Positions 10,459 through 45,088 of a DNA stretch of 64,000 bases are shown here, piece after piece; position 1 is the first letter of the stretch, and the number at the start of each line of letters is the position of its first letter. A model generated the notes under the pieces. It had not been told where the DNA came from. It did not search any database and saw only the letters and a program-made list of their open reading frames with translations. Position numbers and translations under genes: made by a program. The stretch is from Dictyostelium discoideum. Its lineage: Eukaryota. The DNA is taken from contig CM000154.2 in the NCBI GenBank assembly GCA_000004695.1, positions 4,672,001 through 4,736,000 of the forward strand, read 5' to 3'.

Positions 10459-10924
10459 ATAAATAAAAAAAAAAAAAAAAAATTATTATTTCTAAAGTTT
10501 TAAATAAAAATAAAAAAAATAAAAAAATAAAAAAAAATAAAAAAAAAAATTTTAAAAAAAGGTTTGATAATTTATTGATTTTGATATATACATTTATAAA
10601 TGTCTTGTGTGAAAATGAAAAAAAAAAAAAAAAAAAAAACCTTAAATTTGATTTATTGATTTATTGATTTTTTTATTTTCACAAAAGATATATTTAAATA
10701 TATATATCAATAAAAAAACAGAAATAAAAAAATGATCATACTTTAACACACAACCAAATGAATTTCAAAAATTTGGCCACTGTTCGAATTTTTTTTTTTT
10801 TTTTTTTATTTTTTTTTTATTTTTTTTAATTTTTTTTTTTTTTTTTTTTTTTTTTTTCAAAATTATTATAATTTTTCATCACATCAATCACTCATTGTGT
10901 GTTTAAAAAAAAAATAAAAATAAT

Positions 10925-16664: not shown

Positions 16665-18023
16665 ATGGAACCAATTTTAATTCCTTCACAACATAATAGA
16701 TTAGTTATTCCAAGTGAACCAAATGAAGAAGAATTTAATTATATAGCAGATGGATATAAAGGTAAATTAAATATTGATTCCTATGATATTATTTCAACCA
16801 TTGGTAGTGGATCATATGGTGAAGTTTGTATAGTAAGAGAAAAATCCACAAAACAAGTTTATGCAATGAAAAAAATATATTATACAGAAGTTAGTGATAC
16901 AGAATTAGTTGTATGTATTTTAATTAAAATTATTATTTTTTAAGAAAAAAAAAAAAAAAAAAAAAAAAAAATTTATTAATTTTATTTAATTTTATTTAAT
17001 TTTTAATAGAAAAAAAGAGCATTAAGAGAAAGAGATGCTATGGTAATTTGTAATAATAAAAATAATAAAAGAGCACCAAAATTATATTGTTCATTTATTG
17101 ATGATAATGAAGGAGTATTCTATTATGTAATGGAGTTTATTGCAGGTGGTGATTTCAATTCATATTGTTATAAACGTTTAGTTGATGGTAAAAAATTTAC
17201 AGAAGAAGAAATTAAATTCTATATAGCAGAGTTGGTATTATGTTTAGAAGCTTTTCATTCATATGGTTTACTTCATCGTGATGTTAAACCAGAGAATTTA
17301 ATGATAAATAAAGATGGTCATTTGGTTTTAGGTGATTTTGGTAGTTCGAAATTAGCAAATAATAGTGGTGGTGGTGGTGGTAATTTTGGTAATACATTAA
17401 CAGTGCCAATGTCAACATCATATTCAACATCACCATCGTCATCAATTTCATCATCATTATTGGGTGGTAGTGGCGGATTTACACCATCACATTGGAATGG
17501 AATGGCTGGAAGTGCAGGTTCATCATTTGGTTCTTCATCTTTGGGTAGATCATTCGATAATACACCACCAAATTTCAATTCATTCCTAAGAAATCCTCAT
17601 AGTTCCTATACTTCCTATATTGGTACTCCACAATATATGGCAGTTGAGGTGGTTCAAGGTGTAAATTATTCAAAACTTTGTGATTTTTGGTCATTGGGTG
17701 CTATCCTTTTCGAATTGGTAACTGGTCAAGCTTTATTTGTTGAATCACCAGATACAACCGAACAAAAGATTAGAGAAAACATTGGTAATTGGAGAGGTCT
17801 TTTAAATACTGCAGTACAAAAGAATCAACCAATGTCAAAACAAGCTGAATCTTTAATTAGAGAATGTATTGCTCCAGAACGTAAACGTCCTGATGCTTCA
17901 ACCATTAAAAAACATCCATTCTTTGAAGGTATTAATTGGGAAGAAATGGCAAATTTCAATGTTGAACCACCTTTTAAACCAACTTTATCAAGTGATGATG
18001 ATATTTCTTATTTTACAAATTAA
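16665..18023 (+). CDS. AGC-group Ser/Thr protein kinase with long activation-segment insert (NDR/LATS-like), 2 exons
   Basis: Exon 1 16665-16910 ('IGSGSYGEVCIVREKSTKQVYAMKKI', donor GTATGT), exon 2 17010-18023. Motifs 'ERDAM', 'LHRDVKPENLMINKDGHLVLGDFGSS', about 90-aa Gly/Ser-rich insert, 'GTPQYMAVEV', AGC tail 'HPFFEGINWEEMANFNVEPPFKPTLSSDDDISYF'. Confidence 0.85.
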
Positions 18024-18036
18024 ATTAAAAAATCAA

Positions 18037-18068
<32 letters not shown>

Positions 18069-18795
18069 AAGAAAAAAAAAAAAAAAAACAAAACAAAACG
18101 AAGAATCAAGAAAGAGGAAATTAAAGAAATTAGTGTCGGGTGTGTGCGCGTAAAACATTTTCTATATATTTATATATTTATATATCTATATTATTTCAAA
18201 TTTTAAAGTGAAATTGTATTTTCATTATTTTTTTTCAAAAGAAATACAACACTTTTATTATTATTATTATCATTTTTTTTTTTTTTAATTAATTAATTAA
18301 TCAACTATACATATTCAACACAATTTGCCTGTAAAGAAATTTCATTAACAAATTTAATTAATTGGTTAAATAGTTTTTCCAAATTTTATTAAAACTTTAC
18401 GAATATTAACGAATCATATTATTTTTTTATTTTTTTTTTTTAAAATTGAAAAAAAAAAAAAAAAAAAAAAATCTATAAATAAAGCATAATTTGTTTCTAA
18501 AAATATATATAATTATTAAGTTATTAATTTTTTTAATTTTTTTTTTTTTTTTTAAAATTTAAAAGTCTTTTACAATCTGTAAAATTATCTGCTCAGAAAA
18601 TTGAAAAAAAAAAAAATAAAATAAAATAATTTATTGATTTTTTTTTTTTTTTTTCTCAATTTTCCAAGCAGATAATTATATTGATTTTGATCAAAATTAT
18701 TAAAAACTGTAATTTAAATTGAAAAAAAAAATAATAAAAAAAAAAAATTAAATTATTATTCTAAAACCCACCACACTTTTTTTTTTTTTTATTTC

Positions 18796-19320
18796 CAACT
18801 TTTCTGACAGTCCAAATATAGGTAATGGAATATCGAAATTTTATGTTTATACAGATAAGGAGTCCTTTAAATTTGATAATAAACGTTGTATAGCATTTAA
18901 AGATGATTGTAAAATTTTATCAAAATTAGAAAAAAATCAAATTCCATCGAGTGTAATGTTATTTGATGGATTCAACCAGAAATTAATACAAAATATATTG
19001 CCAGAAGGTATTAAGTTATTGTATATAGGTGATGTAAAACAAGAATTGGTAATTGGATCAATTCCTAATACTGTGTTGACTGTCTTTTTAAAGATGGATT
19101 TAATCAAAAATTAACACCTGGTATATTACCAGAAAGTGTTGATGTATTGCATTTACGTGATATCAAACATGAGTTAACAATTGGTTCAATTCCTAATACT
19201 GTTAAGTTTGTCATTTTATTTGATGGATTCAATCAAAAATTAACGCCTTCTATATTACCAGAAGGTGTTAAATCATTGTATTTGGGTGATATAAAACAAT
19301 AATTAATTATTGGTTCAGTT
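18796..19320 (+). pseudogene. FNIP-repeat gene, tandem copy 1 (decayed: internal deletion, stop)
   Basis: Carries the conserved unit 'KFYVYTDKESFKFDNKRCIAFKDDCKILSKLEKNQIPSSVMLFDGFNQKLIQNILPEGIKLLYIGDVKQELVIGSIPNTV...'. Then a frame break ('TVLTVFLKMDLIKN*') and a premature stop at about 19300, followed by a non-homologous GC-containing insert at 19320-19380. Confidence 0.5.
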
Positions 19321-19428
19321 CATAGCCTTCACTCTTACTTAACTCATGGCCACAGCACCATTCAATAAATAAAACTAATAATGATATCTAAAACCAACTA
19401 ATACCAACCCAATGTACATAAATAAACA

Positions 19429-19517
<89 letters not shown>

Positions 19518-19739
19518 TTTGCTATTATCACAATTGTGCATAATATAAATTACTAACAACTCGAAAAAAAAAAAAAAAAAAAAAAACCAAGATTACATAG
19601 ATTTAAAAATCTCCCCCTCTGCGATTAGTTAATATATACTTTCAATTTTCTAATTTATAACTTTCATGTGTTCATTTATTCTAAAATAATTAAATAAAAA
19701 TTAAAAGCATGGAATGCACCTTTTATTCCTACCACTGTA

Positions 19740-20170
19740 AGGGGTGTCTTTATTAAATGGATTCAATCAAAAATTATCACCAGGTATATTACCAGAAGGT
19801 ATAACATCATTGTATTTATCTGGTATTAAACAAGAATTAATTAATGGTTCAATTCCTAATACTGTAAAGAGTGTCTCTTTATTAGTTCAATCAAAAATTA
19901 ACACCTGGTGTTGAATCTTTGGTTATAGGTGATATAAAACAAGAATTAATGATTGGTTCAATTTCTGATACTGTAACAAGTGTAAATGTTTCAAATAAGT
20001 TTAAACATCAAATTAAACCCTTTGTTTCTAATAAATCAATAATATCCCAATTTTAAAGAGAATCCTAATACTGTGACTCATGTCTTTTTAGAAGATGGAT
20101 TCAACCAAAAATTAACACCAGGTATATTACCAGAAGGTGTTGATTCATTGTCCATAGATGATATAAAATA
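19740..20170 (+). pseudogene. FNIP-repeat gene, tandem copy 2 (fragmentary, frameshifted)
   Basis: Repeats 'LNGFNQKLSPGILPEGITSLYLSGIKQELINGSIPNTVKSV' with a deletion that removes 'DGFNQ' in the next repeat and breaks the frame. It ends with the same 'VSNKFKHQIKPFVSNKS' tail as copy 4. Confidence 0.5.
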
Positions 20171-20282
20171 ATTTTAATAAAAAAAACTTCTTTAATATTT
20201 GTAAAAATTTTAACAATATTAATGACGATTTTTTAAATTTTTTTTTTTTTTATTATTTAAATAATATTTATTATTAAATTAA

Positions 20283-20360
20283 TAAACCTAAAACTTAAAC
20301 TGAGTTGAAATCTGACATAATGAAAATAACCATGCATGAAAAGAAAATCACCCAGACTTA
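20283..20360 (-). pseudogene. Orphan fragment of the 3' end of the JMJD5-like gene
   Basis: 'aaacctaaaacttaaactgagttgaaatctgacataatgaaaataaccatgcatgaaaagaaaatcacc' is a near-copy of 25085-25165, the last codons ('...FHYVRSLSTSLSLSFWFIKK*') of the gene at 25072-26587. Confidence 0.5.
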
Positions 20361-20685
20361 TTTTTAATTTTTTTTTTTTTTTTGTTTATTTTTAATTAAT
20401 AAAAGAAACAATTCATTCAAATAGAAAATTAACTCACAAAAAACCAATTATTTTCAAATTATTTTTAATTTTCATATTGATACCAATACAATTAAAATAA
20501 TTAAACAATATCAACAATCATTAATACTTTTAAATAATAATATCAATAATTTTAATAAATTAAAAGAATACAATAATCAATCCATTCATTATTATCAAAA
20601 AATAATTGGAGAAATTAAAAATAATTTTAAATTAATTTACACATTAAATAATAATAATAATAATAATAGTATAAATAATAATAAC

Positions 20686-20771
<86 letters not shown>

Positions 20772-20872
20772 TAATAATATTTATATTAATAGTAATAGAT
20801 ATGAAATAGAAATAGATGAAGATAATAATGAATTTTTTAAATGTAAGCTTAATTTATTTTTTTTATAGATGA

Positions 20873-21388
20873 TATTCACATTATTCTGACAGTGGAGGTC
20901 CAAATATAGATGGAATATCAAAATTTTATATTTACACAGATAAGGAATCCTTTGAATTTAATAATAAACGTTGTATAGCATTTAAAGAAGATTGTAGTAT
21001 TTTATCAAAATTAGAAAATAATCAAATACCATCGAGTGTAATGTTATTAGATGGATTCAATCAGAAATTAATACGAAATATATTACCAGAAGGTATTCTT
21101 TCATTGTATTTATGTGATATAAGACAAGAATTGATAATAGGTTCAATTCCTAATACTGTAGTGGGTGTCTATTTATTAGATGGATTCAATCAAAAAATAG
21201 AACCAGGTATATTACCAAATGGTATTAAATCATTGCACTTGTGTGATATAAAACAAGGATTAACCATTGGTTCAATTCCTGATGCTTTAGAGTATGTCTT
21301 TATAGAATATAGATTCAATCAAAAATTAGCACCTGATTTATTTCCAGAAACTATAAGATTTCAAAGACTCCAAAGATTTTTATATTAA
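20873..21388 (+). CDS. FNIP-repeat protein, tandem copy 3 (open frame; true 5' exon unresolved)
   Basis: Open frame 'HYSDSGGPNIDGISKFYIYTDKESFEFNNKRCIAFKEDCSILSKLENNQIPSSVMLLDGFNQKLIRNILPEGILSLYLCDIRQELIIGSIPNTVVGVYLLDGFNQKIEPGILPNGIKSLHLCDIKQGLTIGSIPDALEYVFIEYRFNQKLAPDLFPETIRF'. About 22-aa repeats with the FN[QI]xL/P and 'GSIPxxV' signature. Confidence 0.5.
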   Translation, partial: YSHYSDSGGPNIDGISKFYIYTDKESFEFNNKRCIAFKEDCSILSKLENNQIPSSVMLLDGFNQKLIRNILPEGILSLYLCDIRQELIIGSIPNTVVGVYLLDGFNQKIEPGILPNGIKSLHLCDIKQGLTIGSIPDALEYVFIEYRFNQKLAPDLFPETIRFQRLQRFLY

Positions 21389-21731
21389 TATAATTTCAAT
21401 TTCCTAATTATATATAACTTTCATTGGTTCATATATTCTAAAATAAATTAAAGAAAAATTAAAAGCATGAAATGAACATTATTCCTAATACTGTGTTTTA
21501 TTTAAATAATAGATATTAACATATATTAAAAAAACATATATTAAAAACCAGTGAAATAAATCATTTATTAAATCAAAAAATTATTAAAATTATTAAATAT
21601 TAATAAATACTAATTTTGCCACTTGAAAATAGAAACAAATTATATAGGAAGGAAAATAATAAAAATAAAATAATTTAAAATAAAAAAAATAAATTAGAAA
21701 TAATTTAAAAATAATTTAAAAATAATTTAAA

Positions 21732-21811
<80 letters not shown>

Positions 21812-21952
21812 TAATATTAATAATAATAATAATATTTTAATTAATAATAATATTTTAATAAATAATAATAAATATAAAATAGAAATGGATAAAGATAATA
21901 ATGAATTTTTTGAATGTAAGCTTTATTTATTGATTTATTTTTTCATAAATGA

Positions 21953-22603
21953 TATTTATATTATTCTGACAGTGAGGGCCTAAAAATAGATAATATTAAA
22001 AAGTTTTATATTTATACAGACAAGAAGCCTTTTAAATTTAATAAACTATGCATGGCATTTAAAGATGATTGTAATATTTTATCAAAATTAGAAAAAAATC
22101 AATTACCATCAGATGTAATGTTATTAGATGGATTCAATCAAAAATTCATACAAAATATATTACCTGAGGGTCTTGAATCATTGTATTTAGGTGATATAAA
22201 ACAAGAATTAGTTATTGGTTCAATTCTTTATACTGTAAAGAATGTCTATTTATTTGATGGATTCAATCAAAAATTAATACCTGCTGTATTACCAAAAGGT
22301 GTTAAATCATTGTTTATAGGTGATATTAAACAAAAATTAATTATTGGTTCAATTCCTAATACTGTAAGGAGTGTATATTTAGAAGATGGATTCAATCAAA
22401 AACTAGCACCTGCTATATTACCAGAAGGTGTTGAATCATTGGATTTAGGTGATATAAAACAAGAATTAATTAATGGTTCAATTCCTAAAACTGTAACCAA
22501 AGTAGTTGTTTCAAAAAAGTTTAAATACCAAATTAAACCCTATGTTTCTAATAAAGTTCAAACCACGGGAAAAATTAAAATTCACTGGGAGAAGTTTTAT
22601 TGA
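21953..22603 (+). CDS. FNIP-repeat protein, tandem copy 4 (most complete)
   Basis: '...KFYIYTDKKPFKFNKLCMAFKDDCNILSKLEKNQLPSDVMLLDGFNQKFIQNILPEGLESLYLGDIKQELVIGSILYTVKNVYLFDGFNQKLIPAVLPKGVKSLFIGDIKQKLIIGSIPNTVRSVYLEDGFNQKLAPAILPEGVESLDLGDIKQELINGSIPKTV...'. Five clean repeats. The conserved N-terminal box is shared with copies 1 and 3. Confidence 0.55.
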   Translation, partial: YLYYSDSEGLKIDNIKKFYIYTDKKPFKFNKLCMAFKDDCNILSKLEKNQLPSDVMLLDGFNQKFIQNILPEGLESLYLGDIKQELVIGSILYTVKNVYLFDGFNQKLIPAVLPKGVKSLFIGDIKQKLIIGSIPNTVRSVYLEDGFNQKLAPAILPEGVESLDLGDIKQELINGSIPKTVTKVVVSKKFKYQIKPYVSNKVQTTGKIKIHWEKFY

Positions 22604-22738
22604 TAAAAAATTAATAATGAAATGATTCATTAATTAAACAATTCTATTAAAAATAAAAACAAAAATAAAATTTCACAATAATATTATATTATAATAATCC
22701 TTTTTTTTTTTAATTTATTTTAATTTTAATTTTAATTT

Positions 22739-23758
22739 TTAATTAAACAATTCATTAAACATTGATAAAATTATTGAAATATGTTCTTCTTTTTCTATTT
22801 TTGGTATTTGTTTTATTTCATGTTTTTGAAATATTTTTTGAACTTTAATGATATCAGATGAAGGTAATTCATTTTCATTAATTGATGCAATTGCAAAAGT
22901 CGTGAAAATATTTGATAAAATTTCATCTTGATTTTGATTTGTAAAATAAAAATTTGTAAAAACAAATTGAGCATGATTTAATAATAAATAAATGATAGTT
23001 TGTTGAGTTGAATGTAGTTCAGGAATATCATCAACTATTGGTAAATTAATTAAAAAAGTATTTATCAAAATTGGTAATTCTGAGTAAATCATTTCATTTT
23101 GGTTTAAAATTATCTTACCCAATGCTGATATAATATTTTCTTTTGCACCATCATATTCAACTTGATTAATATCGATAGTAGTACCACTACCACTACCATC
23201 ACCATCACCATCACCATTTTTAGGTAAACAATTTAATAATAAATCTATTGATTTAGAAATGTATGGTCTAAAATTATCTTTATAATTTTCATTTTTACAT
23301 AACTTTGCACATGTGCCAATGCAACATGATGAATTTCTAATTAAAAAGTTTGTATAGATTTTGTTATTTTGAAATCCAAATTCAATAGTTGTATTCATTA
23401 TAGTGTGGAAATTATTGGTTGATGTAAATTCTTCACTACATTCTTCAAGTAATACACAAACAATTGAAAATAATGTTACTTTAAGAGCTGGAAATGAGTA
23501 TTTTAATCTTTTTAAAATCGTTGGTAAAAGGAATTCTATGAAAGAATCTGAATTTTCTCCATCTGTTTTTAATTCACTTGAAATACCACATAATGATGAA
23601 AATATTTTACAATAACCTTTATTTAATTCTCTTTGTAGCATATCATCTAATAATTCATTTTCATTAAATGATTTACCATTTTCAATTGTTTCATTTATCA
23701 TAGTTAAAAGTTGTTTCTTTTTATTTTCAAAATAAATTGGAAGTTCATTATTATTCAT
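22739..23758 (-). CDS. Hypothetical 339-aa protein, probably helical-repeat (ARM/HEAT-like); single exon
   Basis: Continuous ORF with non-low-complexity sequence ('FLLPTILKRLKYSFPALKVTLFSIVCVLLEECSEEF...', 'ALGKIILNQNEMIYSELPILINTFLINLPIVDD'). No homolog recognised. Confidence 0.5.
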   Translation of the reverse strand: MNNNELPIYFENKKKQLLTMINETIENGKSFNENELLDDMLQRELNKGYCKIFSSLCGISSELKTDGENSDSFIEFLLPTILKRLKYSFPALKVTLFSIVCVLLEECSEEFTSTNNFHTIMNTTIEFGFQNNKIYTNFLIRNSSCCIGTCAKLCKNENYKDNFRPYISKSIDLLLNCLPKNGDGDGDGSGSGTTIDINQVEYDGAKENIISALGKIILNQNEMIYSELPILINTFLINLPIVDDIPELHSTQQTIIYLLLNHAQFVFTNFYFTNQNQDEILSNIFTTFAIASINENELPSSDIIKVQKIFQKHEIKQIPKIEKEEHISIILSMFNELFN

Positions 23759-23975
23759 TTTTTTAATTTAATTTGTTTTTTTTTTTTTAGTGATGTTGCT
23801 TTTTAAAAAAGTAAAAATAAAATAAAAAAAAAAAAAATAAAAAAAAATTAAAATAAAACGAAAACAAAAAAATTCAGATATTTTTTAATTTTCTAAGAAA
23901 ATATTGACCAGTATATATCTGATTTTTATTTTTATTTTTTCATTTTTCTTTTTCTTTTTCTTTTTATTTTCATAT

Positions 23976-24009
<34 letters not shown>

Positions 24010-24039
24010 ATAATTTAATCAAAAAAAAAAACAAACAAG

Positions 24040-24074
<35 letters not shown>

Positions 24075-24099
24075 ATATATTCCAAAATCATTCAATTTT

Positions 24100-24790
24100 T
24101 GATCATATCTTTTAATTTCAATTAAAAATGGTTTAAATTTAGTTTTACAGTTTTGCCAATTTGATCAGGTAAAACAGATGTTGCCGATTTTAGTGAATCA
24201 TGTGTGAATAAAGGCATTGCTTTGTTGTATGTTAATAAAAGTCCAAATGCTTGTAATTTGCCAAAATGATAAGAAAGACCCATTAAATAATCAAACATTT
24301 GTCCAATGACCTTTGGATCATAAAATGAATCTTCATTACATTTGACTTGAATAAAACCAATATAATTTGTTTTTGATTTTAATAACCAATGATCTGGTTG
24401 TAATCCAACAATATCTTCTTGAGAAACAATTGAAATTTCATGTTCAAAGCATCTATAATAATAGGATTTGTAAAATTATAAAGTTCATATTCATTACGAG
24501 CAGTGAAAGTATCAGAGTCTGTATAAAGAGACAACACACATGATTCTTTATCACCATTCTTTTCTAAAAGATCTTCAAAATTTTGTATTCCAACCAAAGT
24601 GCTAAGTTGTAATTAACATTAATCATGATTTGATGAAGATTGTGATGTTGATGTTATAATGTACTTTGGTATGCCATTATCAATAAGATGTCTGATGGAT
24701 CTTTCTTTTTCTTTTTTTTGAAGTTCTTTTACTTTTTCTAAAAGTTCTTCATATGCTTTTTTGTAATCTATATTATTATCACTCATTTTC
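24100..24790 (-). pseudogene. Truncated, frameshifted duplicate of the N-terminal domain of the 40501-41902 gene (lineage-specific family)
   Basis: Minus-strand translation 'MSDNNIDYKKAYEELLEKVKELQKKEKERSIRHLIDNGIPKYIITSTSQSSSNHD...STLVGIQNFEDLLEKNGDKESCVLSLYTDSDTFTARNEYELYNFTNPIIIDAL' is collinear with 40501-41336 (+). A 14-nt deletion (relative to 'attatgtggtcttg' at about 40990) shifts the frame. Homology stops at 'KTVK', so the kinase-like C-domain is absent. Confidence 0.5.
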
Positions 24791-25071
24791 TATTTGGTGT
24801 GTTTAATTTGTATAAAGATACCTCTTTTTTTTTTTTATTATTTATTATTTATTATTTTATATTCAAAAAAAAAAAATTAAATAAAAAAATAAAAAAAATA
24901 AAATTTTGGCGGGATATTTTTTATTATATATTTATTTTAATTAAAACAATTCTAATAAAAATAAAAACAAAATTAAAACTTCACAATAATATTATATTAT
25001 AATATATTCCTTTTTTTTTTTAAAAAAAAAAAAATATTTCTTAATAAAATGATTAATGATGATTTTTAAAT

Positions 25072-26587
25072 TTATTTTTTAATAAACCAAAAACTTAAAC
25101 TGAGCGATGTTGATAAAGATCTAACATAATGAAAATAACCACTTGGCATGAAAAGAATATCACCAGGACCTAAAATACATTCTGTATAATGTTGATTTGC
25201 TATTTTTAATAATGGATATTTTTCAAAATCTGTATCTTCAAAATCAACAAAACTAATATTATTTTGAGCAGTTTTTGAATTTTTAACAAGATTATTGTCA
25301 TCACTATCACCCTGATCTTTCTTTAAATAAAGATTTGAAATTTGATTTTGTGGATAAAGACGAACATATTTATAACCAACGATTTGAGTTAAGAAATTGT
25401 CATAGCTGTCGAAATGTAATGGAGTTATTGTATTACCTGTGCCTAACCAAATATGGGGTGATATTCCCTCTTCTTCAGTTTCATGAACTTTTGCATCACC
25501 TGTAGTTTGTAAAAATAATGGGAATTTAAAATCATCCAATAGTGATGGTAACTGTTCGATTAAACCATGTTGTGCTAAATAAGCAACCTTTGATGATTCT
25601 GTAGCTGTACTATCATTATCTTTACTTGAAGGTATCATATATTCTTCAATGAAATCTTTTAATTTCATTAATTTCTCTGACCAATCAATTGAATTATCAT
25701 TATCATTATTTGCTGTAGTAGTAGTAGTTTGTTGTTGTTGTTGTTGTTTCTTTGTTTTTGAATCTAATTTATTATGACCTAATTCAATTGGTACAATTCT
25801 ATTACCATGATTTGAAAGAAAATAATTTAAGTCTTTCCATTTATTTATACATTCCCAATTATTTGCATCACCTTTAATTATACATGGTGTCATTGTGTTT
25901 AAATGTTGATTTTTAAATATTGAAAATTCATTTAAATAATCACCACCACTACCACTAGCGCCACCATTATTTTTACCACATTCAATTACTTTAATTTCAT
26001 GATTTTTATCTATAATTGGAAATTTTGAAAAATTAACATTTTCATCTAAAATCATTGGTATTGTAGGTGAAGTTGAAGTTGTTGTTGTAGTTTGCTTTTT
26101 TGATAATTCATCCATAATTGGTAATAATAATTCTTTTGGTGCACCCATTATAAAAGATTGATCACAGATTTCTAAAGTTTTAATTAAATCATTTTGAGTG
26201 TACCAATAGGTTATACCTGCTAATTGACCCATAATAAATGATTCTCTTAAACAAATATGTTCCCAACCACCTTGTTTCAATAATTTATTCCATGTTAATT
26301 TATAAATTGATTCATGGATATTCTTTAATTGATTAAATTGTTTTTTATTATACATAAAAAATAATTTCTTTAAATCAACTGATAATTGATTTGCATCTTC
26401 ATTACCCAATGACAATAAATCTTGACATGCTAAAAAAAAATAAAAAAAAAAGAATTAAAATTTAATTTTCATGTTTTTATTTTTTATTTTTTATTTTTTT
26501 TTATTTAAATAAATACAAACTTCTTGTATAACAATTCTTTATTAAATTAAAGATTGGTACTCTATACTCCTCTTTAAATGAATTCAT
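25072..26587 (-). CDS. JmjC-domain protein, JMJD5/KDM8-like 2-oxoglutarate/Fe(II) hydroxylase, 2 exons
   Basis: Exon 2 25072-26429 and a short exon 1 26521-26587 ('MNSFKEEYRVPIFNLIKNCYTR', donor GTTTGT, acceptor TTTAG). Cupin core 'HIWLGTGNTITPLHFDSYDNFLTQIVGYKYVRLYP...YTECILGPGDILFMPSGYFHYVRSLSTSLSLSFWF' aligns with human KDM8 '[34 protein letters not shown]...[33 protein letters not shown]'. Also 'NRIVPIELGH...DWSEKLMKLKDFIEEY' versus KDM8 '[27 protein letters not shown]'. Confidence 0.8.
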
Positions 26588-26616
26588 ATTCGTAATTTTT
26601 TTTTTTTTACAAAACG

Positions 26617-26660
<44 letters not shown>

Positions 26661-32548: not shown

Positions 32549-32668
32549 TTAAGCTATATCTTCTTCTACATCAAAGTAATCATCATCATCATCATCTTCA
32601 TCATCATCATCTTCTTCTTCTTCTTCTTCCATTTCCACTTCTTCAACTTCTTCCTCTTCTTCATCATC

Positions 32669-32749
<81 letters not shown>

Positions 32750-34677
32750 TTCTTCATCATCTTCATCATCATTTAAAAAATCTAATTGATCGAAATCACC
32801 TTGTTCAAGTGCACCATCTTCATTAATTATTAAACCACTTAAATGAGATAATAATGGTGAGAAACTTTCACCATTATTAAATAATTGTTCATCAATTCTT
32901 TGATCTTGTTGTTCTTGAATTTGTTGTTCATTTTCAGAATCAAAATCAGTATCATCGAAAAGGGAAGCTTCATTGATGGTGGCATCATCGAATAATAATT
33001 TCATAAAATCTTTTTCAGACATTTTCAATTTTCTTGTGATTTTTCTAGATTCTAAAAATAATTGTAATTTATATTCAGCTTCAATAGTTTTATTTAAAGA
33101 TTGAAATTCTGATTTATCATCGGACCTATTAATACCTTCGCTTAAATTACTACTATTTGATGGTGGTAAATTGTTTTTATGATAAAATTGAAATAATTTA
33201 TCACCAAATTTATTCATTAAACTTTCCATAGTCACACGTTGAAGATAGGATAATATTTTAATTCCATTATTTGCATTGGTTACAAATGAACTACCACTAC
33301 CACCACCACCACCACCACTACCACCATATGCAGTAGAAGTAGTATTAGCAGATGATGATGATTGTGTATTATTCGATAAATGATCATCATCTTCAATATC
33401 TACGATTTGTGGTGACAAAATGTGAATGTCACTTGAATCAATTGAAGCTACAGCAATTCTAAAATCATTTAAACCACTAATTACTGAATTTCTATTACAA
33501 CTACTTTGATAATGATTATCATTGATATTATTTGCCACCGGTACTAAATGAACTGGAGATTTATGAGATACCACCCTTTTTAATACATTACCACTTTGAG
33601 TATCATAGATATAGACATGTCTATCCTCTGAGCCTGACACAATTTGACGATCGTTATTAATGAAAGAACAACCTACATTGTAGCCCATACATCTATGTTT
33701 TCTATACTCTTTGACAATACCAATGGAAGTGTTTGTTGTTATAACACGACCACTCTCTTTGTTTATCTCTACTTTACTTTCACCATCACCCAATCCTTTA
33801 ACTTTGGTGGCGGGTGAAGAAACCAATAATCTCGTATCCCAAAGTCTGATAGTATTATCACGACCACTCGATAGAATCTGACGGTCATCCATTGTCCAAT
33901 GGAGAACATTTAATTTGTTATGAGCTTGTACGCTGAAAATCGGAGTTTTGAAGCCCTCTCTAAGATCCCACATACGCATAGTACCATAACGTGCACCAGA
34001 TATGAAAACATTGTTATCGAAATGATGAAATTTCATACTGTTTATAGTATTTAAATTGCCAATACTGTCATCGGATGGATGAGCTTTATCTAATCTGAAA
34101 AAGATTTTACCATAATTCATATCCCATCCACAAATGGTCGACGATGCACAACCACTCAATAATATCGAATCATCCATTGTTAACTCCATTGATTTCAACC
34201 AATCATCATGTTCTTTAAGTGTTGTCACCAATTGAAAATTCTTATAAACTTTAATTGTATGATCTAATGAACATGTTAAAAATGAATTAAATGGTGATAT
34301 AATTGATCTCTTATAAGTTGCTTGTGATGTTTTTTGTTTTAAATATCCTTGTATTTCATTATTATTATTATTATTATTATAATTATAATTAAAACCATTA
34401 CTATTATTATTATTATTACTATTACTATTACTATTTATTGAAATTTTTTGTCTTTTATTCATTAATGACCCTATATCATCTTGATTATAATCTTCTCTAA
34501 AATTTCCATAATATTGTTCTTCATTTTCACCATACGCTTTATTAAACCAAATTGCCATTGATACAACTTGTTCATGATCTCTAATATTATATAATAATTC
34601 ACCTGAATTTGGTTCAAATATATCAACTGAATCATCTATTTAAAAATATGTTTCTTATTAATATATAGCTTTTAAAA

Positions 34678-35903: not shown

Positions 35904-35934
<31 letters not shown>

Positions 35935-36085
35935 ATTAAAATACCAAAAAAAAAAAAAAAAAAAAAACCCCCCTATAAAAGCTTTAAAAATCCAAATGAA
36001 TTTTTTCCATTAATTAAAAATAAAATTTAAAAATTTTTAGAAAAATAACCCTTAAAAAATTAATTTAATTAATTGGCTTATTTAA

Positions 36086-36115
<30 letters not shown>

Positions 36116-36770: not shown

Positions 36771-36999
36771 TCCTAACAATTGGTTATAACCAATCGTGTG
36801 TTTTGTAAATAAAATAAAAAATAAAAAAAAATAAAAAATATAAAAAAAATAGTGGATGGTATAAGTTAGAAAATAAATAAAATAAAATAAATAAAAAAAT
36901 AAGACCATTCCCAACAATTATATGTTTTCTATTTTTTTTTTTTTTCAGATTTTTTTTTTTTTTCTTTCTTTTTGTAAAAAAAAAAAAAAAAATTACGGA

Positions 37000-37800
37000 T
37001 ATGAATTCATTTAAAGAGTACCAATCTTTAATTTAATAAAGAATTGTTGTACAAGAAGTTAGTGTTATTAATAAAAAATTAAAAAATTAAAAATTAAAAT
37101 TTAATTAATTCTTTTTTTTTTTATTTTTTTTTTTTTATTTTTTTTTTTCAGCATGTCAAGATTTATCATTAGGTAATGAAGATGCAAATCAATTATCAGT
37201 TGATTTAAAGAAATTATTTTTATAAGAAAATCATTTATTATGGGTCAATTAGCAGGTATAACCTATTGGTACACTCAAAATGATTTAATTAAAACTTTAG
37301 AAATCTTTTATAATGGGTGCACCAAAAGAATTATTATTACCAATTATGGATGAATTATCAAAAAAGCAAACTACAACAACAACTACAACTTCACCTTCAA
37401 CTTCACCTACAATACCAATGATTTTAGATGAAAATGTTAATTTTTTAAAATTTCCAATTATAGATAAAAATCATGAAATTAAAGTAATTGAATGTGGTAA
37501 AAATAATGGTGGTGGTGGTGGTGGTAGTGGTGGTGATTATTTAAATGAAATTTCAATATTTAAAAATCAAAATTTAAAAACAATGACACCATGTATAATT
37601 AAAGGTGATACAAATAATTCGGAATGTATAAATAAATGGAAAGACTTAAATTATTTTCTTTCAAATCATGGTAATAGAATTGTACCAATTGAATTAGGTC
37701 ATAATAAATTAGATTCAAAAACAAAGAAACAACAAAAACAACAACAAACTACTACTACTACATCAAATAATGATGATGATGATAATTCAATATTTTTTTT
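37000..37800 (+). pseudogene. Partial, internally deleted duplicate of the JMJD5-like gene (inverted copy of 25590-26590)
   Basis: 37000-37080 is the reverse complement of 26509-26590 (exon 1 'MNSFKE..', with a 10-nt deletion). 37147-37800 encodes 'ACQDLSLGNEDANQLSVDLKKLF' then stops, then 'IMGAPKELLLPIMDELSKKQTTTT...HNKLDSKTKKQQ'. That is collinear with 26415-25660 but lacks about 200 nt in between and the whole catalytic JmjC half. Confidence 0.6.
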
Positions 37801-38715
37801 TTAAAAAAAAAAAAAGATCAATTGAGAGTTTTTGTGAGAATTTTTTTTTTAGGCTAGATTTATATAAAAAAGGAAATATTATTATTTTTTTTCCTATGAA
37901 ATAATCTACAAGACTAAAATTCTTTTTTTGGTTTTTCCACAAACGTGTTTTCTTATTTTGATTTCTTTTTTTTTGTTTGATTTGTGTTTGCATTTTTTAT
38001 TATGAATAAACTATTAACTAAATCAAATACTCCTATAAAATATATTAATAAACCATAAAGTTTCCATAATAAATTATTAATATTTTTATTTTTTATTATT
38101 TTTTATAATACCAAAGAAAATGGAATCACTATTGTTTGTATTTAATGAATCAATTGTTACATCAGTTCAAATATAATTTTTTTTTTTTCTTTTTTTTAAA
38201 TCACTTTTAATTTTATAAAATTTTGGTTTATTATTTTTATTATTATTTTTTTATTTTTTTTCAAATCACTTTTTTTATGGGTGTGAGTTCCAATAAACCA
38301 CATGTTGAATTTACAAACACACTCAAACACACATGAACACACATTTAAAAAAATAAGTTTTTCTTATTTTTTAACAACTCCACCATACCCCAAATTTATT
38401 TTTGGTTTATTCTATCTCAATTTAAGAATTATTTATGGTTTATTAAAATTAAAATTAGAATTAAAAAAATTATTAATTATTTATTTTTAAATTTTTTTTT
38501 TTTTTCCAAAAATTTCCCTTTTTTTTTTTTTTTTTTTTTTTATTCTCTTTATTATTATTTTATTTATATTAATTTCTATATATTCTTTATTTTAATTTCT
38601 TTTTATTATTATCTTTTATTATTTATTTTTATAATTATTATTTTTTATTTTTTATAATTAATATTTTTTTTTTTTTTTTTATTATTATTTTTACAAATAA
38701 ATAATTTTTGAAAAA

Positions 38716-40193
38716 ATGTCAATTGATATAAAATTTACAATTAATGATATTTTATTTAATCAAGAATCATTACAAAAGAAAAATAAATATACATGTCCAA
38801 TTTGTTTTGAATTTATTTATAAAAAACAAATTTATCAATGTAAATCAGGTCATCATGCATGTAAAGAATGTTGGGAGAAATCATTAGAAACAAAAAAAGA
38901 ATGTATGACTTGTAAATCAGTAGTGAATTCATATAATGATTTATCAAGATGTTTGATGGTAGAGCGTGCATTTGATAAAAAAGAATGTTGTTGTATTTAC
39001 TCATTCACCGAACAAATAGTTCAAGGTGGAACAAATTGTTCACCACCAGATGGTGCCTCAGACCAAAATCAAAGAAAATTAATAAAAGATGAAGAAAATG
39101 GTTGTAAAGAAAAAATTGAAGTTGATCAAATTGATTCTCATTTAATCAATTGTCAATATAAATTTGTTACATGTTCATTCAAAGGATGTGAAAAGATTTT
39201 AAGAATGAATTCATTAGAATCTCATCAAAATGAATGTGGTTTCAAATTGGTTATATGTGATTTCTGTAAAAGGGATGATATTAAAAAGAAGGAATTAGAA
39301 ACTCATTATAAGACATGTCCAATGGTTCCAATTGATTGCTCACAAGGTTGTTCAGTGAAAATTGAAAGGAAATCAATTATCGATCATATTGAAAATGATT
39401 GTTGTAATACTCAAATACCATGTAAATATTTTGAACAAGGTTGTAAAGTTGAGATGAAGAGATCAGAATTACAAAATCATTTGGAGAGAGTGAATCATCA
39501 AACTTACATGGGCATTCTAATTGATAAATTAACAAATCAAGTTGGCCACTCAAAGAAAACTCATGATGAACTTTTGAAAAAGATTGAAGATTTGTCATTA
39601 TTAATTATCAAATTCAGTGATGCATGTTTAAAGAAACAAGTTCTTCCAAAGGCTTTGGATATTTGTTCAAATGGGTATAGAAATAAATGGATCATTTCTA
39701 ACTATTCAAGTTTAGCAAAATCAAAATTAAATTGTAAATCATTGTCCTCTCCAATACTGTTAATACTCTCTCACCATTTTCAAGTTTGTGTTTATCCTAA
39801 AGGTGATGAAAATAAAGAATACATTTCATTATATTTAAGAGTTAATAATATTGAAGAACCAAACTCATTAAAAGTAGAATATTCATTTACATTAGTCAAT
39901 GTTTTGGATAAATCAAAATCAATTACAAAAAGAGTAGATAAAATAGGTAATTTATACAAAAATTATTATTATTATTATTATTATTATTATTTTAATTTTT
40001 AATTAATTATTATTATTATTATTATTATTTTTTTATTTTAGTTTTTATAAGTCCAAAAGAATGGGGATGGGGAAAATTCTTATTATCTGATTTAATTAAT
40101 AAAGAGAATGGTTGGTTAAGTAATGATGATAAATTAACAATAGAAATTTATATTAAAATTTTAAATGAAGAATATGAACCATTGGAGTCTTAA
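38716..40193 (+). CDS. TRAF-like protein: RING finger + TRAF-type zinc fingers + C-terminal MATH domain, 2 exons
   Basis: RING '[41 protein letters not shown]'. TRAF zinc fingers (repeated 'C..GC....R..L..H...C'). MATH domain '[36 protein letters not shown]...ISLYLRV', donor GTAATT at 39947, exon 2 40042-40193 '[41 protein letters not shown]'. Confidence 0.8.
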
Positions 40194-40500
40194 ATCTTAA
40201 AAAACTGTAAACCATAAATTGATAAAATCATGTATTTCCCTATTTTTACAACTTAAAAAAAAAATATAAATAAATAAAAAAATCTTTCCAAATTATTTAA
40301 TGTTCAACTAGTTTTCAATTATTTTCTTAATAATCCTTAAACATTTTTTTTTTTTTTTTAATATGAAAAATAAAATATGCAAAAAAAAAAAATAAATAAA
40401 AAATATCCCGCCAATATTTTTTTTTTTATTTTATTTTTTTTGTTAAATAAAAAAAAAAAAAAAAAATGGTTATATACAAATTAAACACACCAAATAGAAA

Positions 40501-41902
40501 ATGAGGGGTAATAATTTAGATTACAAAAAAGCATATGAAGAACTTTTAGAAAAAGAAAAAGAACATCAAAAAGTTCTTTTAACTTTTAGAAAAACAAAAA
40601 GCATATGAAGAACTTTTAAAAAAAGAACATCAAGAAAAAGAAAAAGCATATGAAGAACTTTTAGATAAAGAAAAAGAACTTCAAGAAAAAGAAAAAGAAA
40701 ATCAAAAAAAAAGAAAAAGAAAGATCCATCAGACATCTTATTGATAATGGCATACCAAAGTGCATTATAACATCAACATCACAATCTTCGTCAAACCATG
40801 ATTCATGTCAATTACAACCTAGCACTTGGGTTGGGATACCAAATTTTGAAGATCTTTTAGAAAAGAATGGTGATAAAGAATCAAGTGTGTTGTCTCTTTA
40901 TAGAAACTCTGATACTTTCACTGCTCGTAATGAATATGAACTATATAATTTTACAAATCCTATTATTAGAGATGCTTTGAAATTATGTGGTCTTGAACAT
41001 GAAATTTCAATTGTTTCTCAAGAAGATATTGTTGGATTACAACCAGATCATTGGTTATTAAAATCAAAAACTAATTATATTGGTTTAATTCAAGTCGAAT
41101 GTAATGAAGATTCATTTCATGAACCAAAGGTCATTGGACAAATGTTTGATTATTTAATGGATCTTTCTTATCGTTTTGGCAAATTACAAGCATTTGGACT
41201 TTTATTAACATACAACAAAGCAATGACTGTATCCACACATGATTCACTAAAATCGGCAGCTGCTAATATTCAAACATCTGCTTTACCTGATCAAATTAGC
41301 AAAACTGTAAAAAATTATTATATGAAATTTATTTAGTCAAGTATTTAGGTGGTGGAGGCGATGGACATTGCTCTTATGCATTAGCAGAAGAGGGTCATAG
41401 TTTGGTTATAAAATCTTTCAATAACACAATTAAAAAAAGAAAAGAGATGAAGAAAGAAGATTATGGCACACCATTTGGGGAATTGAAACTCATAAAAACA
41501 TATGCAGCTAAAGATCATTTGGTAATGCCATTCATAAAACCAATTGGAAATGATGATTATAATAGTACAGATTTTATGGATTTAATATCTACTGCAGCAG
41601 ATACTTTCTCAAGTAAAGGTTATGAACATATGGATTTACACATTAGACATATTTGTAAATACAAAAAAAATGAAAAATGTGAATATATATTTATTGATTT
41701 ATCAAGAGTATCAAAAGTCACAGATAAAGATCAAGCAAAACAAAGAATGATTAATTGTATTTTAAAAGATTTAGAAAAAATCAGATATAATCATAGTTTA
41801 ACCGATAACGAACAACCAAACTCTTCCATTGCCCATGCAAATCTTGAACGATTTTCCAATCCTTTTACCATTCCTTTAACTCCAAATGATAAGTCCAAGT
41901 AA
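40501..41902 (+). pseudogene. Lineage-specific gene: N-terminal domain + atypical protein-kinase-like C-terminal domain; frame is broken at least twice (pseudogene or sequence errors)
   Basis: The N-terminus carries a local tandem triplication of 'KAYEELLEKEKE' with a frameshift. The middle domain 'NFEDLLEKNGDKESSVLSLYRNSDTFTARNEYELYNFTNPIIRDAL...HWLLKSKTNYIGLIQVECNEDSFHEPKVIGQMFDYLMDLSYRFGKLQAFGLLLTYNKAM' ends at a stop at 41336. A +1 frame continues 'VKYLGGGGDGHCSYALAEEGHSLVIKSF...GYEHMDLHIRHICKY...YIFIDLSRV' (Gly-loop / VAIK-like / HxD / DFG-like order) to 41902. No canonical intron bridges the break. Confidence 0.45.
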
Positions 41903-42180
41903 TTTATTTAATAAATAATTAATATAAAATTGTAAATAAACGTTATTAAATTGGGTTATAGCAGTGTTGGTAAATCCAATAATAAACATCAACATTAAAA
42001 AATATCGGTAATGATGATTCATTTATTGGTGCTGCTTTAATTTCATTTAATACTTTAATGAATTTAAATAAATAAAATAATAAAAAGATGGAATATTCCA
42101 ATTTGTGTAAAAAAAAAAGGTGTGTGTTTATTTAAATAAAAACTATTTCAAATAAAATTGATAATATTTTTCTTTAAAGT

Positions 42181-43821: not shown

Positions 43822-44369
43822 TTTTAATAGTTGTGTAAAAAAAGAAATCATTTACCATCCTCAATTAGAAATAATATTACTTAATGTGTTAAAAATAATT
43901 TTTAAGATGTTGGAAATGGTTTTAATTTTTTTTTTTATTTTTTTTTATTTTATTTTATTTTATTTTATTTTTAATTTATTTTTTTTTACAACAGAGCCTC
44001 TTAAAATTAAGATATTAGTTTTGGGTAAATCATCAATAATTAATGTTTTTCTTACCAGATTGCGGTAATATAATTAATAATAAATTTATGAAAAATAAAA
44101 ACAAATGGCTGAGGAATGGTGTAAAAATCAATTCAACTCTATAATAATACTCATATACAATATATTGAAACTTCAACATTTAATAATTAATCATTTATTA
44201 GTGCTGCTTCAATTTCATTTAATATTAATCAATTTAAATATATAATTAAATAAATCATTGTAATATTAAAAAAATAAAAAGATGGAATATTCTTATTTAT
44301 GTAAAAAAATAATAAAAAAAAAGTGTGTGTGTTTATTTAAAATAAAATTATTTCAAATAAAATGATATT

Positions 44370-44480: not shown

Positions 44481-44575
<95 letters not shown>

Positions 44576-45001: not shown

Positions 45002-45088
<87 letters not shown>

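Follow-up and report, generated by a model that had tools for sequence, protein, structure and literature searches.

The stretch of DNA analysed here, 64,000 nt of Dictyostelium discoideum AX4-type chromosome 5 (the window), contains two related gene blocks, block A on the minus strand and block B on the plus strand. Block A begins with jcdF (25072–26587, minus strand), an intact DDB_G0290869-type JmjC/Cupin_8 gene of 474 aa with two exons (26587–26521 and 26429–25072), whose spliced product is identical to the AX4 'JmjC domain-containing protein F' (Q54FG7). The Cupin_8/JmjC domain was detected by Pfam with E = 1.4e-48, the translation contains 'LHFDS' and 'FHYV' (the HxD...H metal-binding residues), and the nearest named homologues are 'lysine-specific demethylase 8'; jcdF is predicted to belong with the JMJD5 (KDM8)-like hydroxylases. 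Its dN/dS is 0.06–0.2. The gene also adjoins a RhoGAP gene at the same position in D. citrinum and D. firmibasis, and it is the ancestral resident of block A.

The 3’ flank of jcdF is joined to the upstream region of a second gene by an 87-bp spacer, R1 (24937–25023, minus strand). This second gene is a pseudogene copy of DDB_G0290897 (DUF5898, Pfam PF19250), the 'family gene' of the initial annotation, and occupies 24131–24936 on the minus strand, with the upstream region at 24787–24936 and the ATG at 24786. The N-terminal domain of this copy (DUF5898-A) carries a frameshift, as had been proposed, and in-frame stops, and a deletion near 24140 fuses the central region to post-stop sequence, leaving only the N-terminal part without the Pfam domain.

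Further along, DDB_G0290863 (22739–23758, minus strand) is a single-exon gene of 339 aa with no known domain and an exact match to Q54FH0. A secondary copy of R1, R2 (22630–22713, minus strand), sits between the 3’ ends of DDB_G0290863 and the fourth copy of an FNIP-repeat array. The array (18777–22603, plus strand; Pfam FNIP, E = 9e-29) consists of four ~1.08-kb units that are mostly interrupted by stops, and the sole open reading frames (ORFs) reaching 70 aa are 22052–22603 and 21041–21388. Between FNIP copies 2 and 3 lies an orphan piece (20229–20360, minus strand) comprising the last ~30 codons of jcdF and ~50 bp of its 3’ flank.

Block B opens with a jcdF pseudogene (jcdF-B; 36920–37791, plus strand) in which ~40–70 bp of sequence ahead of the gene, exon 1, the intron and the first two-thirds of exon 2 are preserved. 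The deletions that the initial annotation had reported in this copy are one of 10 bp in exon 1 and two of 106 bp and 11 bp in exon 2, and the copy stops at 37791, before the Fe-binding HxD motif. Its longest ORF (37313–37804) is annotated as the hypothetical protein DDB_G0290881. The following 283-bp filler (37792–38073) matches the window and the compared loci only through low-complexity sequence. Next comes the segment with the young, immune-type TRAF gene trafC (38074–40359, plus strand), with coding exons at 38716–39946 and 40042–40193, and then the second DUF5898 copy, DDB_G0290897 itself (DUF5898-B; 40383–41902, plus strand, ATG at 40501). At the far end, the last ~24 codons of a small GTPase gene remain (41986–42057, plus strand; 83% over 24 aa by tblastn with the intact ACTFIY gene, L011 4916–5545), the gene ahead of which the unit was inserted.

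The gene at 40501–41902 had been described as full-length. This description fails against the orthologue in isolate ACTFIR, located at block B, which is an intronless, uninterrupted ORF of 573 codons. DUF5898-B is degenerate in AX4: the N-terminal KAYEELL repeats contain two frameshifts, 256 bp are deleted out of frame at 41312, and a double frameshift at 41434–41490 is compensated, so that the gene spans three reading frames and is 256 bp short of the intact orthologue. The DUF5898 domain is still recognised in its 3’ ORF (E = 2e-29), but compared with the ACTFIR orthologue the gene has three breaks, and the AX4 gene models (389 and 424 aa) cross these defects via tiny 'introns'. The other gene identities (JmjC, TRAF, DUF5898 family and FNIP) were correctly called, judging by Pfam.

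Self-comparison of the window and assembly check

When the window was compared with itself by BLASTN under the low-complexity filter, all six of the off-diagonal matches predicted from the first reading were recovered, at 78–884 bits. Four of them are inverted matches between the blocks, namely the DUF5898 core (24143–24749 vs 41312–40674; 90.1% over 639 columns, 884 bits) and its upstream side (24715–24938 vs 40572–40383; 78.6%, 196 bits), and jcdF (25688–26257 vs 37791–37215; 92.5% over 588 columns, 871 bits) and its 5’ side (26357–26660 vs 37221–36920; 82.0%, 313 bits). The other two are direct. The R repeat (22630–22713 vs 24937–25023) is real, but its identity is 92.0% over 87 columns (120 bits) rather than the ~85% first estimated, and the orphan (20279–20360 vs 25079–25172) is 78.7% identical over 94 columns (78 bits).

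Top scores in control sequences were 43–65 bits for first-order Markov resamples and 77–99 bits for 20-nt block shuffles, which preserve simple repeats. The four inverted matches and the 87-bp repeat are far above chance, and the concern that these reflect low-complexity sequence is dispelled by their persistence under the filter and by controls that do not exceed 99 bits. By score, the 78-bit orphan is the sole marginal match; it is nevertheless supported, because 20229–20360 matches the 3’ end of the JmjC gene in five other genomes. The jcdF 3’ ends of AX4, ACTFIR, ACTFIY, D. citrinum and D. firmibasis match it at 71–79%. In D. citrinum and D. firmibasis, this match reaches the first bases past the jcdF stop.

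When one block is reverse-complemented, the two are colinear and the order of the four segments is identical, in agreement with the gene order and orientation given by the initial annotation. The edge of the A/B homology at 24143/41312 is a deletion breakpoint in copy B; copy A continues a few codons further.

A mosaic of this kind could arise in a reference assembly whose AT-rich repeats had been collapsed or joined into chimeras. The window does contain a 100-N gap (55155–55254), and base differences from another assembly cluster at 35.9–36.1 kb. However, that assembly (GCA_054883475.1), an independent one from the same strain lineage with identical proteins, aligns to window positions 12703–33784 (L001) and 30489–51923 (L006) as single colinear blocks at 99.7% each, without structural differences over 12.7–51.9 kb. 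The differences are mostly homopolymer lengths and scattered substitutions, densest at 35.9–36.1 kb; none falls within the duplicated genes, and the degenerate DUF5898-B sequence is identical in both assemblies. In addition, both blocks are present, with lineage-specific deletions, in other isolates, and the copies differ by 4–5%, unlike the product of a collapse. The artefact reading is refuted for practical purposes.

Comparative genomes and the probable date and direction of the duplication

We read the order of events from six related genomes, among which ACTFIR and ACTFIW are other D. discoideum isolates and ACTFIY is a cryptic sister species. D. citrinum and D. firmibasis show the ancestral state, in which a protein-kinase gene and jcdF stand tail to tail. 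In D. citrinum, a 161-aa gene, the small GTPase gene and a 180-aa gene follow one another ~10 kb from jcdF. No DUF5898 gene was found at block A or B in ACTFIY and D. citrinum, nor in D. firmibasis, for which only block A was covered. At block B, the small GTPase gene is intact in ACTFIY and D. citrinum.

By contrast with these outgroups, block B of ACTFIR and ACTFIW contains a jcdF remnant, R and DUF5898 in the order of block A. ACTFIW has an unbroken run of jcdF 3’ coding end, 50 bp, R and DUF5898, as in AX4 block A, and ACTFIR block B retains R and DUF5898. AX4 block A and block B of both ACTFIR and ACTFIW carry the R core, ACTFIR block A has a degenerate version, and ACTFIY, D. citrinum and D. 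firmibasis have none. The jcdF-B copies of AX4, ACTFIR and ACTFIW group together in a neighbour-joining tree, which points to a single origin. The ACTFIR copy of DUF5898-A retains the 3’ end missing in AX4 and is missing the part that AX4 retains; since the two hold complementary parts, the ancestral DUF5898-A copy was complete. The inverted duplication of a two-gene unit proposed by the initial annotation is supported by the order jcdF–R–DUF5898 in the other isolates.

Substitutions between blocks A and B amount to 3.9% in jcdF and 4.5–5.1% in DUF5898, and for jcdF, dS between AX4 and ACTFIR is 0.045 and between AX4 and ACTFIY 0.082. These values date the duplication between the ACTFIY and ACTFIR splits, and the pattern of presence and absence likewise requires that date. 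By these sequences, the duplication is probably younger than the separation of the cryptic sister species and older than the divergence among D. discoideum isolates. The description of the region as a patchwork of rearrangements holds in the comparative data, but 'recent' applies only to the trafC insertion (~2% diverged), which is specific to the AX4 lineage; the unit duplication, 4–5% diverged, predates the split of the isolates.

Just past the DUF5898 stop in ACTFIR and ACTFIW block B lies a colinear 36-nt fragment of DDB_G0290863 (codons 173–184, 97% identical). DDB_G0290863 is native to block A only, so this fragment argues for copying from A to B. It also bears on another history, in which at least two independent reciprocal copyings took place, a jcdF fragment moving from A to B and DUF5898, native to block B, moving separately from B to A, for instance through gene conversion initiated within the shared jcdF sequence. 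The indels that the loci have in common and the low divergence of the paralogues, both signs of exchange between A and B, would fit such a history, as would the intact 573-aa DUF5898 of ACTFIR block B, a position easier to understand for a gene that began at B. We consider it improbable in view of the fragment of a block-A-native gene behind DUF5898 in block B, the identical junction of jcdF 3’ flank, R and DUF5898 in both loci, and the block B of ACTFIY and D. citrinum, which has an intact small GTPase gene and no DUF5898.

A probable inverted segmental duplication followed by decay

We therefore favour, for this part of D. discoideum chromosome 5, a DNA-level inverted segmental duplication with subsequent complementary decay, which we regard as likely. 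As the genomes record it, DDB_G0290863 was inserted between jcdF and the kinase gene, and this state persists in ACTFIY, where DDB_G0290863 lies directly after jcdF; D. citrinum and D. firmibasis lack the gene. Probably later, a DUF5898 copy with R ahead of it entered a poly-T/poly-A tract 50 bp past the jcdF stop. Subsequently, ~3.7 kb appears to have been copied in inverted orientation to a site ~10 kb away, a poly-T tract directly ahead of the start codon of the small GTPase gene. The copied stretch begins ~40–70 bp before the jcdF ATG and extends to the stop of DUF5898, with a further 36-nt piece from the middle of DDB_G0290863. The junctions of this step are visible in the sequences; its direction is suggested by the 36-nt piece and the outgroups, and its mechanism may have been repair of a break on an ectopic template with template switching.

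In the compared isolates, jcdF-B, DUF5898-A and the GTPase gene then decayed by deletions that differ from one isolate to another, DUF5898-B decaying too in AX4. In ACTFIR block B, the GTPase start and 3’ end survive to the right of the insert. FNIP units were inserted and amplified between DDB_G0290863 and the kinase gene: no FNIP sequence was found at the array site in ACTFIY, D. citrinum and D. firmibasis, and the ACTFIR arrangement differs, with both orientations present. AX4 also gained two short patches of jcdF 3’ flank, R2 and the orphan; R2 is found in the AX4 lineage only, and the equivalent site in ACTFIR and ACTFIY has no R core. Finally, and only in the AX4/AX2 lineage, a 2.3-kb copy of the DG17/trafD locus replaced the 3’ part of jcdF-B and R, yielding the expressed gene trafC.

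Several observations complicate this account. In the DUF5898 core, informative four-taxon sites split 4/2/2, a star-like pattern, the AX4 copies A and B differ by 4.5–5.1% and are closer to each other than AX4 copy B is to its orthologues (6.5–8.1%), and deletions of 33 bp and 6 bp are common to AX4 copy A and ACTFIW copy B. Together, these make it likely that the inverted copies later underwent gene conversion or that the history was more complex. ACTFIY block A may have lost DUF5898 by a secondary deletion, since the junction lies between two poly-T runs, and no donor of DUF5898 and R was found. The left junction of the unit and the right junction of the trafC segment fall in homopolymer tracts, and exact breakpoints and any target duplication are therefore undefinable there.

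The dispersal of gene fragments in both orientations and the insertion sites in poly-T tracts could also suggest retroposition, or capture by a transposable element of the Helitron, Pack-MULE or retroelement type. This is very improbable. Both jcdF-B, with its intron and upstream DNA, and the trafC segment, with its intron and promoter DNA, argue for DNA-mediated copying, unlike a retroposed copy, which would have lost its introns, carry a poly-A tail and lack promoter DNA. In the region, we found no mobile-element signature: the only terminal inverted repeats are A/T runs, there are no Rfam hits, and the called genes include no reverse transcriptase, transposase or integrase domain. The junctions lie in poly-T, which leaves room for a short target duplication. 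tRNA genes, the usual targets of Dictyostelium TRE elements, are absent from the region.

Relation to known systems

The duplication followed by decay that we favour is a well-resolved new example of a known process, low-copy segmental duplication with complementary loss, and ordinary genome evolution; the mosaic as such is without function. As in known cases of duplication–degeneration, two colinear copies of a few kb lie on one chromosome at ~90–92% BLAST identity, introns and flanks are kept, and a different member of the pair has decayed by deletions and frameshifts at each locus. Here, in contrast, the unit is small (~3.7 kb originally), inverted and interrupted by the younger duplicate trafC, and both AX4 DUF5898 copies are degenerate, so that the loss is not neatly complementary. 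Outcomes of template switching of the MMBIR/FoSTeS type are also similar, in that homopolymer junctions carry microhomology, insertion is coupled to deletion of the target, and short patches copied from nearby (the 36-nt DDB_G0290863 piece, R2 and the orphan) occur together with fillers; this resemblance concerns the outcome only.

Large duplications of at least 15 kb, recent and variable among stocks, have been described in D. discoideum laboratory strains (Bloomfield et al. 2008, PMC2643946). The present case likewise concerns duplicated DNA in AX-type strains, but the 4–5% divergence and the presence in wild isolates rule out an event of that type, and two lab-strain assemblies have the identical structure.

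The tgrB1/C1 locus, 104–250 kb of self-recognition genes on chromosome 3, has been called a 'hypermutable hotspot', where local recombination produces duplications, inversions and gene gain or loss among close relatives; repeated double-strand breaks with non-homologous repair were proposed as the cause, and the locus was reported to differ from other regions (Holland et al. 2025, PMC12745789). The species complex, the assemblies and the local rearrangement between close relatives are common to both studies, but our region spans ~25 kb on chromosome 5 with perhaps half a dozen events. It is possible, if rather doubtful, that the interval of ~17–46 kb, from the kinase gene to a VCPO-like gene, is a persistent break-and-repair hotspot of the tgrBC kind and that trafC is thereby a very young gene. 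If so, trafC would be specific to the NC4/AX lineage, vary in presence among wild D. discoideum, and have been born by templated insertion into a dead gene copy. More speculatively, the inverted jcdF/DUF5898 pseudogene copies might yield double-stranded RNA that feeds the RNAi pathway.

Origin of trafC

The initial annotation had left open whether the TRAF gene was inserted or retained. Block B of ACTFIR and ACTFIW contains no TRAF gene and the segment is a copy of the DG17/trafD locus, which supports insertion and excludes retention. The donor locus lies ~140 kb away in the opposite orientation, and the segment matches it (L007 5349–7690) at 91.9% over 2387 columns, retaining ~640 bp upstream, the intron and ~170 bp downstream. 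The two genes differ by 2.1% in substitutions, their coding sequences are 97.9% identical in nucleotides and 95.9% in amino acids, and the dN/dS is 0.42. The product is identical to DDB_G0290883 (Q54FG0) and contains Sina_RING, zf-TRAF (E = 2.6e-24) and MATH domains, fitting a predicted TRAF-like E3 ligase.

DDB_G0290883 was named trafC in a study that found TrafC and TrafD to be 95.56% similar (Raykov et al. 2023, PMC10181826), in line with the 95.9% amino-acid identity to DG17 seen here. The origin of the gene was outside the scope of that paper; the comparison here traces it to a 2.3-kb DNA copy inside a dead jcdF copy, missing at this site in two other D. discoideum isolates. The TrafC E3 ligase has been reported to be recruited to Mycobacterium-containing vacuoles.

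A decayed inverted duplication in the window

Three products encoded in the window match AX4 proteins of D. discoideum at every residue, indicating that the window is AX4-type chromosome 5. Two lie on the minus strand, DDB_G0290863 (22739-23758) and, with one intron, JmjC domain-containing protein F (jcdF; 25072-26587). The third is DDB_G0290883 (38716-39946 and 40042-40193), a TNF receptor-associated factor family protein that is called trafC in Raykov et al. 2023 (PMC10181826). The G+C content is 20.8%, and a single 100-N gap lies at 55155-55254. We found no tRNA genes or Rfam families in the window, no close orthologues of the WD40 gene (32549-34558) when searching for its homologues, and no match among solved structures searched by sequence with DUF5898 and DDB_G0290863.

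The region contains an old, small inverted segmental duplication that has since decayed, together with a younger inserted duplicate that became trafC. The initial annotation had described the region as a mosaic of duplicated segments, and self-BLASTN of the window with the low-complexity filter on reproduced all six of its off-diagonal matches at the claimed coordinates. The four inverted matches (196-884 bits) and an 87-bp repeat (120 bits) exceed the best scores of shuffled controls (at most 65 bits for Markov shuffles and at most 99 bits for block shuffles that retain simple repeats), showing that they are not low complexity. The orphan jcdF 3' end in the FNIP array gave only 78 bits over 94 columns; we accepted it since several other genomes match 20229-20360 with their jcdF 3' end, some of them with the flank as well.

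A mis-assembly, for which the annotation had asked for a check, is excluded because the window and an independent assembly (GCA_054883475.1) align colinearly at 99.7% across 12703-33784 and 30489-51923, and because other isolates carry block A and block B, each in its own version. The duplicated genes show zero differences between the window and the independent assembly. Because the fetched loci of GCA_054883475.1 differ from the window, chiefly in homopolymer length, the window is not that record. GCA_054883475.1 is one of the assemblies of Holland et al. 2025 (PMC12745789); the lab strain AX2-214 is in that set, and GCA_054883475.1 is presumably AX2. At 35931-36094, just upstream of a gene starting at 36116, the window also differs from the independent assembly at ~22 clustered bases, most of them swapped between A and T. 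A micro-inversion at 35.9-36.1 kb was rejected, since identity is 50% reversed versus 84% forward, and the cluster is probably a low-quality stretch in one assembly. Overall, the earlier interpretation was essentially right and the finding is real.

The elements follow the same order in both blocks when A is read on the minus and B on the plus strand. The first homologous segment comprises the upstream region, exon 1, the intron and the 5' part of exon 2 of jcdF (A, 26660 to 25688; B, 36920 to 37791), and the second comprises the upstream region and N-terminal half of a DUF5898 gene (A, 24938 to 24143; B, 40383 to 41312). The middle segments are non-homologous: that of block A (25688 to 24938) holds the remaining jcdF, 50 bp of 3' flank and an 87-bp spacer, R, while that of block B (37792 to 40382) holds a 283-bp filler followed by 2.3 kb carrying trafC. 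Neither this filler (37792-38073) nor that of comparison locus L005 (11802-12032) matched anything in the window or the fetched loci. The jcdF copy in block B has deletions of 10 bp in exon 1 and of 106 bp and 11 bp in exon 2, as well as small repeat-length changes, and it ends ahead of the metal-binding residues. The ORF at 37313-37804, annotated as 'hypothetical protein DDB_G0290881', is a dead jcdF fragment and no gene. A separate match of 79 columns at 86% between the (TTTA)n-rich stretch at 24003-24080, downstream of DUF5898 copy A, and a site ~640 bp past DG17 (L007 8160-8237) most likely reflects low complexity.

Timing of the duplication

We took the orthologous regions from six genomes. 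In D. firmibasis (GCA_036169595.1), where block A only was represented, jcdF and a kinase gene are arranged tail to tail with a few hundred bp between them, as they are in D. citrinum (GCA_054859145.1), whose block B site carries a 157-aa gene, a 174-aa small GTPase gene and a 180-aa gene without DUF5898 or a jcdF fragment. In the cryptic sister species ACTFIY ('D. cf. discoideum', GCA_054859205.1), jcdF is followed directly by DDB_G0290863 without DUF5898, FNIP or R, and the block B site has an intact 181-aa GTPase and again neither DUF5898 nor a jcdF fragment. The D. discoideum isolate ACTFIR (GCA_054859385.1) has jcdF, a degenerate R, a DUF5898 copy and DDB_G0290863 in block A, and a jcdF remnant, R and DUF5898 in block B. 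Its DUF5898 copy in block A keeps the start and the 3' third and lacks the N-terminal domain, the reverse of AX4. The isolate ACTFIW (GCA_054859355.1), represented by block B only, has a jcdF remnant with the 3' coding end and flank, R and DUF5898. The D. purpureum locus (L008) shows no conserved gene order with this region and so adds nothing as an outgroup. These states indicate that the ancestral DUF5898 copy in block A was complete, that the jcdF-R-DUF5898 junction is common to both loci, and that the duplication occurred after the ACTFIY split and before AX4, ACTFIR and ACTFIW diverged.

In a neighbour-joining tree, the three jcdF B copies group together, beside the A copies of the discoideum complex and inside D. 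citrinum. Substitutions between A and B amount to 3.9% for jcdF and 4.5-5.1% for DUF5898, and the synonymous divergence of jcdF from AX4 is 0.045 for ACTFIR, 0.082 for ACTFIY and 0.27 for D. citrinum; these values agree with the timing. The region offers a clean and datable example of an inverted duplication with templated patches and decay, and it leaves current views unchallenged. The process is known, and this is a new, well-documented instance of it; nothing points to a novel kind of system. Its main value lies in annotation and in what it offers those who work with the model organism.

Direction and insertion site

The outgroups conserve the flanks of jcdF, which is therefore native to block A; DDB_G0290863 is native to block A alone. 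Directly after the DUF5898 stop in block B of ACTFIR and ACTFIW lies a 36-nt stretch that is 97% identical to DDB_G0290863 codons 173-184 and oriented as in block A. Together, the native position of jcdF and this piece suggest that the unit was built at A and copied to B, and that the copying process jumped along the A template. The unit landed in the poly-T tract directly before the start codon of the small GTPase gene. In block B of ACTFIR, both the start and the 3' end of the GTPase are preserved right of the insert, and in AX4 the gene is reduced to its last ~24 codons (41986-42057). We rejected an insertion within the GTPase gene, as ACTFIR retains the start codon region right of the insert, which places the insertion just upstream. 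The unit is associated with neither terminal repeats nor element-type enzymes, and tRNA genes and RNA families are likewise lacking. Introns are kept. The event took place at the DNA level and was neither retroposition nor an obvious transposon capture.

The neighbouring DNA contains an old tandem duplication of a unit with the small GTPase and a 180-aa gene (42009-43425 and 44181-45732; 71% over 1634 columns), with both copies in ACTFIY and a single copy in ACTFIR, ACTFIW and D. citrinum. A second degenerate small GTPase remnant (43994-44223; N-terminal 27 aa and residues 65-109) lies inside the second tandem copy.

Damage to the DUF5898 copies

The copy in block A contains in-frame stops and a frameshift. 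The block B gene had been described as full-length, and this did not hold: in ACTFIR it is one uninterrupted ORF of 573 codons, whereas the AX4 sequence (DDB_G0290897, 40501-41902) falls into three frames relative to this orthologue. Precisely at 41312, AX4 has lost 256 bp, a length that does not divide by three; in addition, two frameshifts fall in the N-terminal KAYEELL repeats, and the reading frame is shifted and restored at 41434-41490 by a compensated double frameshift. The public models (389 and 424 aa) span these defects via implausibly short 'introns', one of only 35 nt. DDB_G0290897 is a damaged DUF5898 gene. It follows from the 256-bp loss that the end of A/B homology (24143/41312) is the breakpoint of a deletion in copy B; copy A runs a few codons further (KTVKLNLN), after which its own deletion joins it to the sequence that lies past the stop codon in the ACTFIR A copy. 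The ACTFIW model (552 aa) covers 1690 nt (L010 10001-11690), leaving a 31-nt 'intron', so that this copy may be frameshifted too and only the ACTFIR copy is clearly intact.

The DUF5898 core of four sequences shows a star-like pattern, and the two AX4 copies are more alike than AX4-B and its orthologues. We also observed that AX4-A (24160-24230) shares 33-bp and 6-bp deletions with ACTFIW B (L010 ~10795-10830) that are in neither AX4 B nor ACTFIR B, suggesting that the inverted copies exchanged sequence or that an old polymorphism was sorted. Gene conversion between copies A and B would be a reasonable reading of the star pattern, the A/B likeness and the shared deletions.

Origin of trafC

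The segment at 38074-40359 matches the DG17 locus (L007 5349-7690), ~140 kb distant on the opposite strand, at 91.9% including gaps with 2.1% substitutions, and the match takes in ~640 bp upstream, the intron and ~170 bp downstream. Over the coding sequences, nucleotide identity is 97.9% and amino-acid identity 95.9% (dS 0.04, dN/dS 0.42). TrafC and TrafD were reported to have 95.56% similarity (PMC10181826), and from this agreement we infer that DG17 is trafD. The segment took the place of almost the whole of R together with the 3' portion of the jcdF pseudogene. The gain of trafC is the youngest event and, among the genomes examined, is seen only in the AX4/AX2 lineage, because the 90% cluster holding both AX4 paralogues contains only one protein each from ACTFIR, ACTFIW and ACTFIY, and because the gene is missing from block B in ACTFIR and ACTFIW. 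For work on cell-autonomous immunity, it matters that trafC looks like a recent DG17/trafD duplicate (~2% diverged) and that it was found at this site in the lab-strain lineage only. Both points affect the interpretation of the localisation difference reported between TrafC and TrafD, as well as the generality of trafC results. At the source locus (L007 3305-6000), DG17 is head to head with a cysteine-protease gene, and trafC may therefore have inherited part of a shared divergent promoter in its upstream DNA (38074-38715).

The FNIP array and other repeats

The FNIP array (18777-22603) is missing in ACTFIY, D. citrinum and D. firmibasis and is arranged differently in ACTFIR. R2 (22630-22713), a secondary copy of the spacer R (R1), is present in AX4 only. 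R2 and the orphan are copies of two adjacent parts of one 236-bp source (24937-25172), placed in swapped order flanking FNIP copies 3-4 and differing in age (92% versus 79% identity). The simplest guess is that they are separate short templated patches. We also considered R1 and R2 as a long target duplication flanking an insert of DUF5898 and DDB_G0290863; this was rejected because R2 is not in ACTFIR or ACTFIY, and ACTFIY has DDB_G0290863 without R.

A match between 50000-50195 and 58682-58851, with many others in other loci, is an (AAT)n tract coding for poly-asparagine and no repeat element. The AT-rich imperfect palindromes at 18509-18759 and 61889-63898 (self-inverted identity 64-71%) are probably compositional. 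A newer annotation merges the protein-kinase gene and the FNIP array (16678-22603) into one 1011-aa product, which is probably a fusion artefact because in ACTFIY, D. citrinum and D. firmibasis the kinase lacks FNIP and has a length of 415-420 aa.
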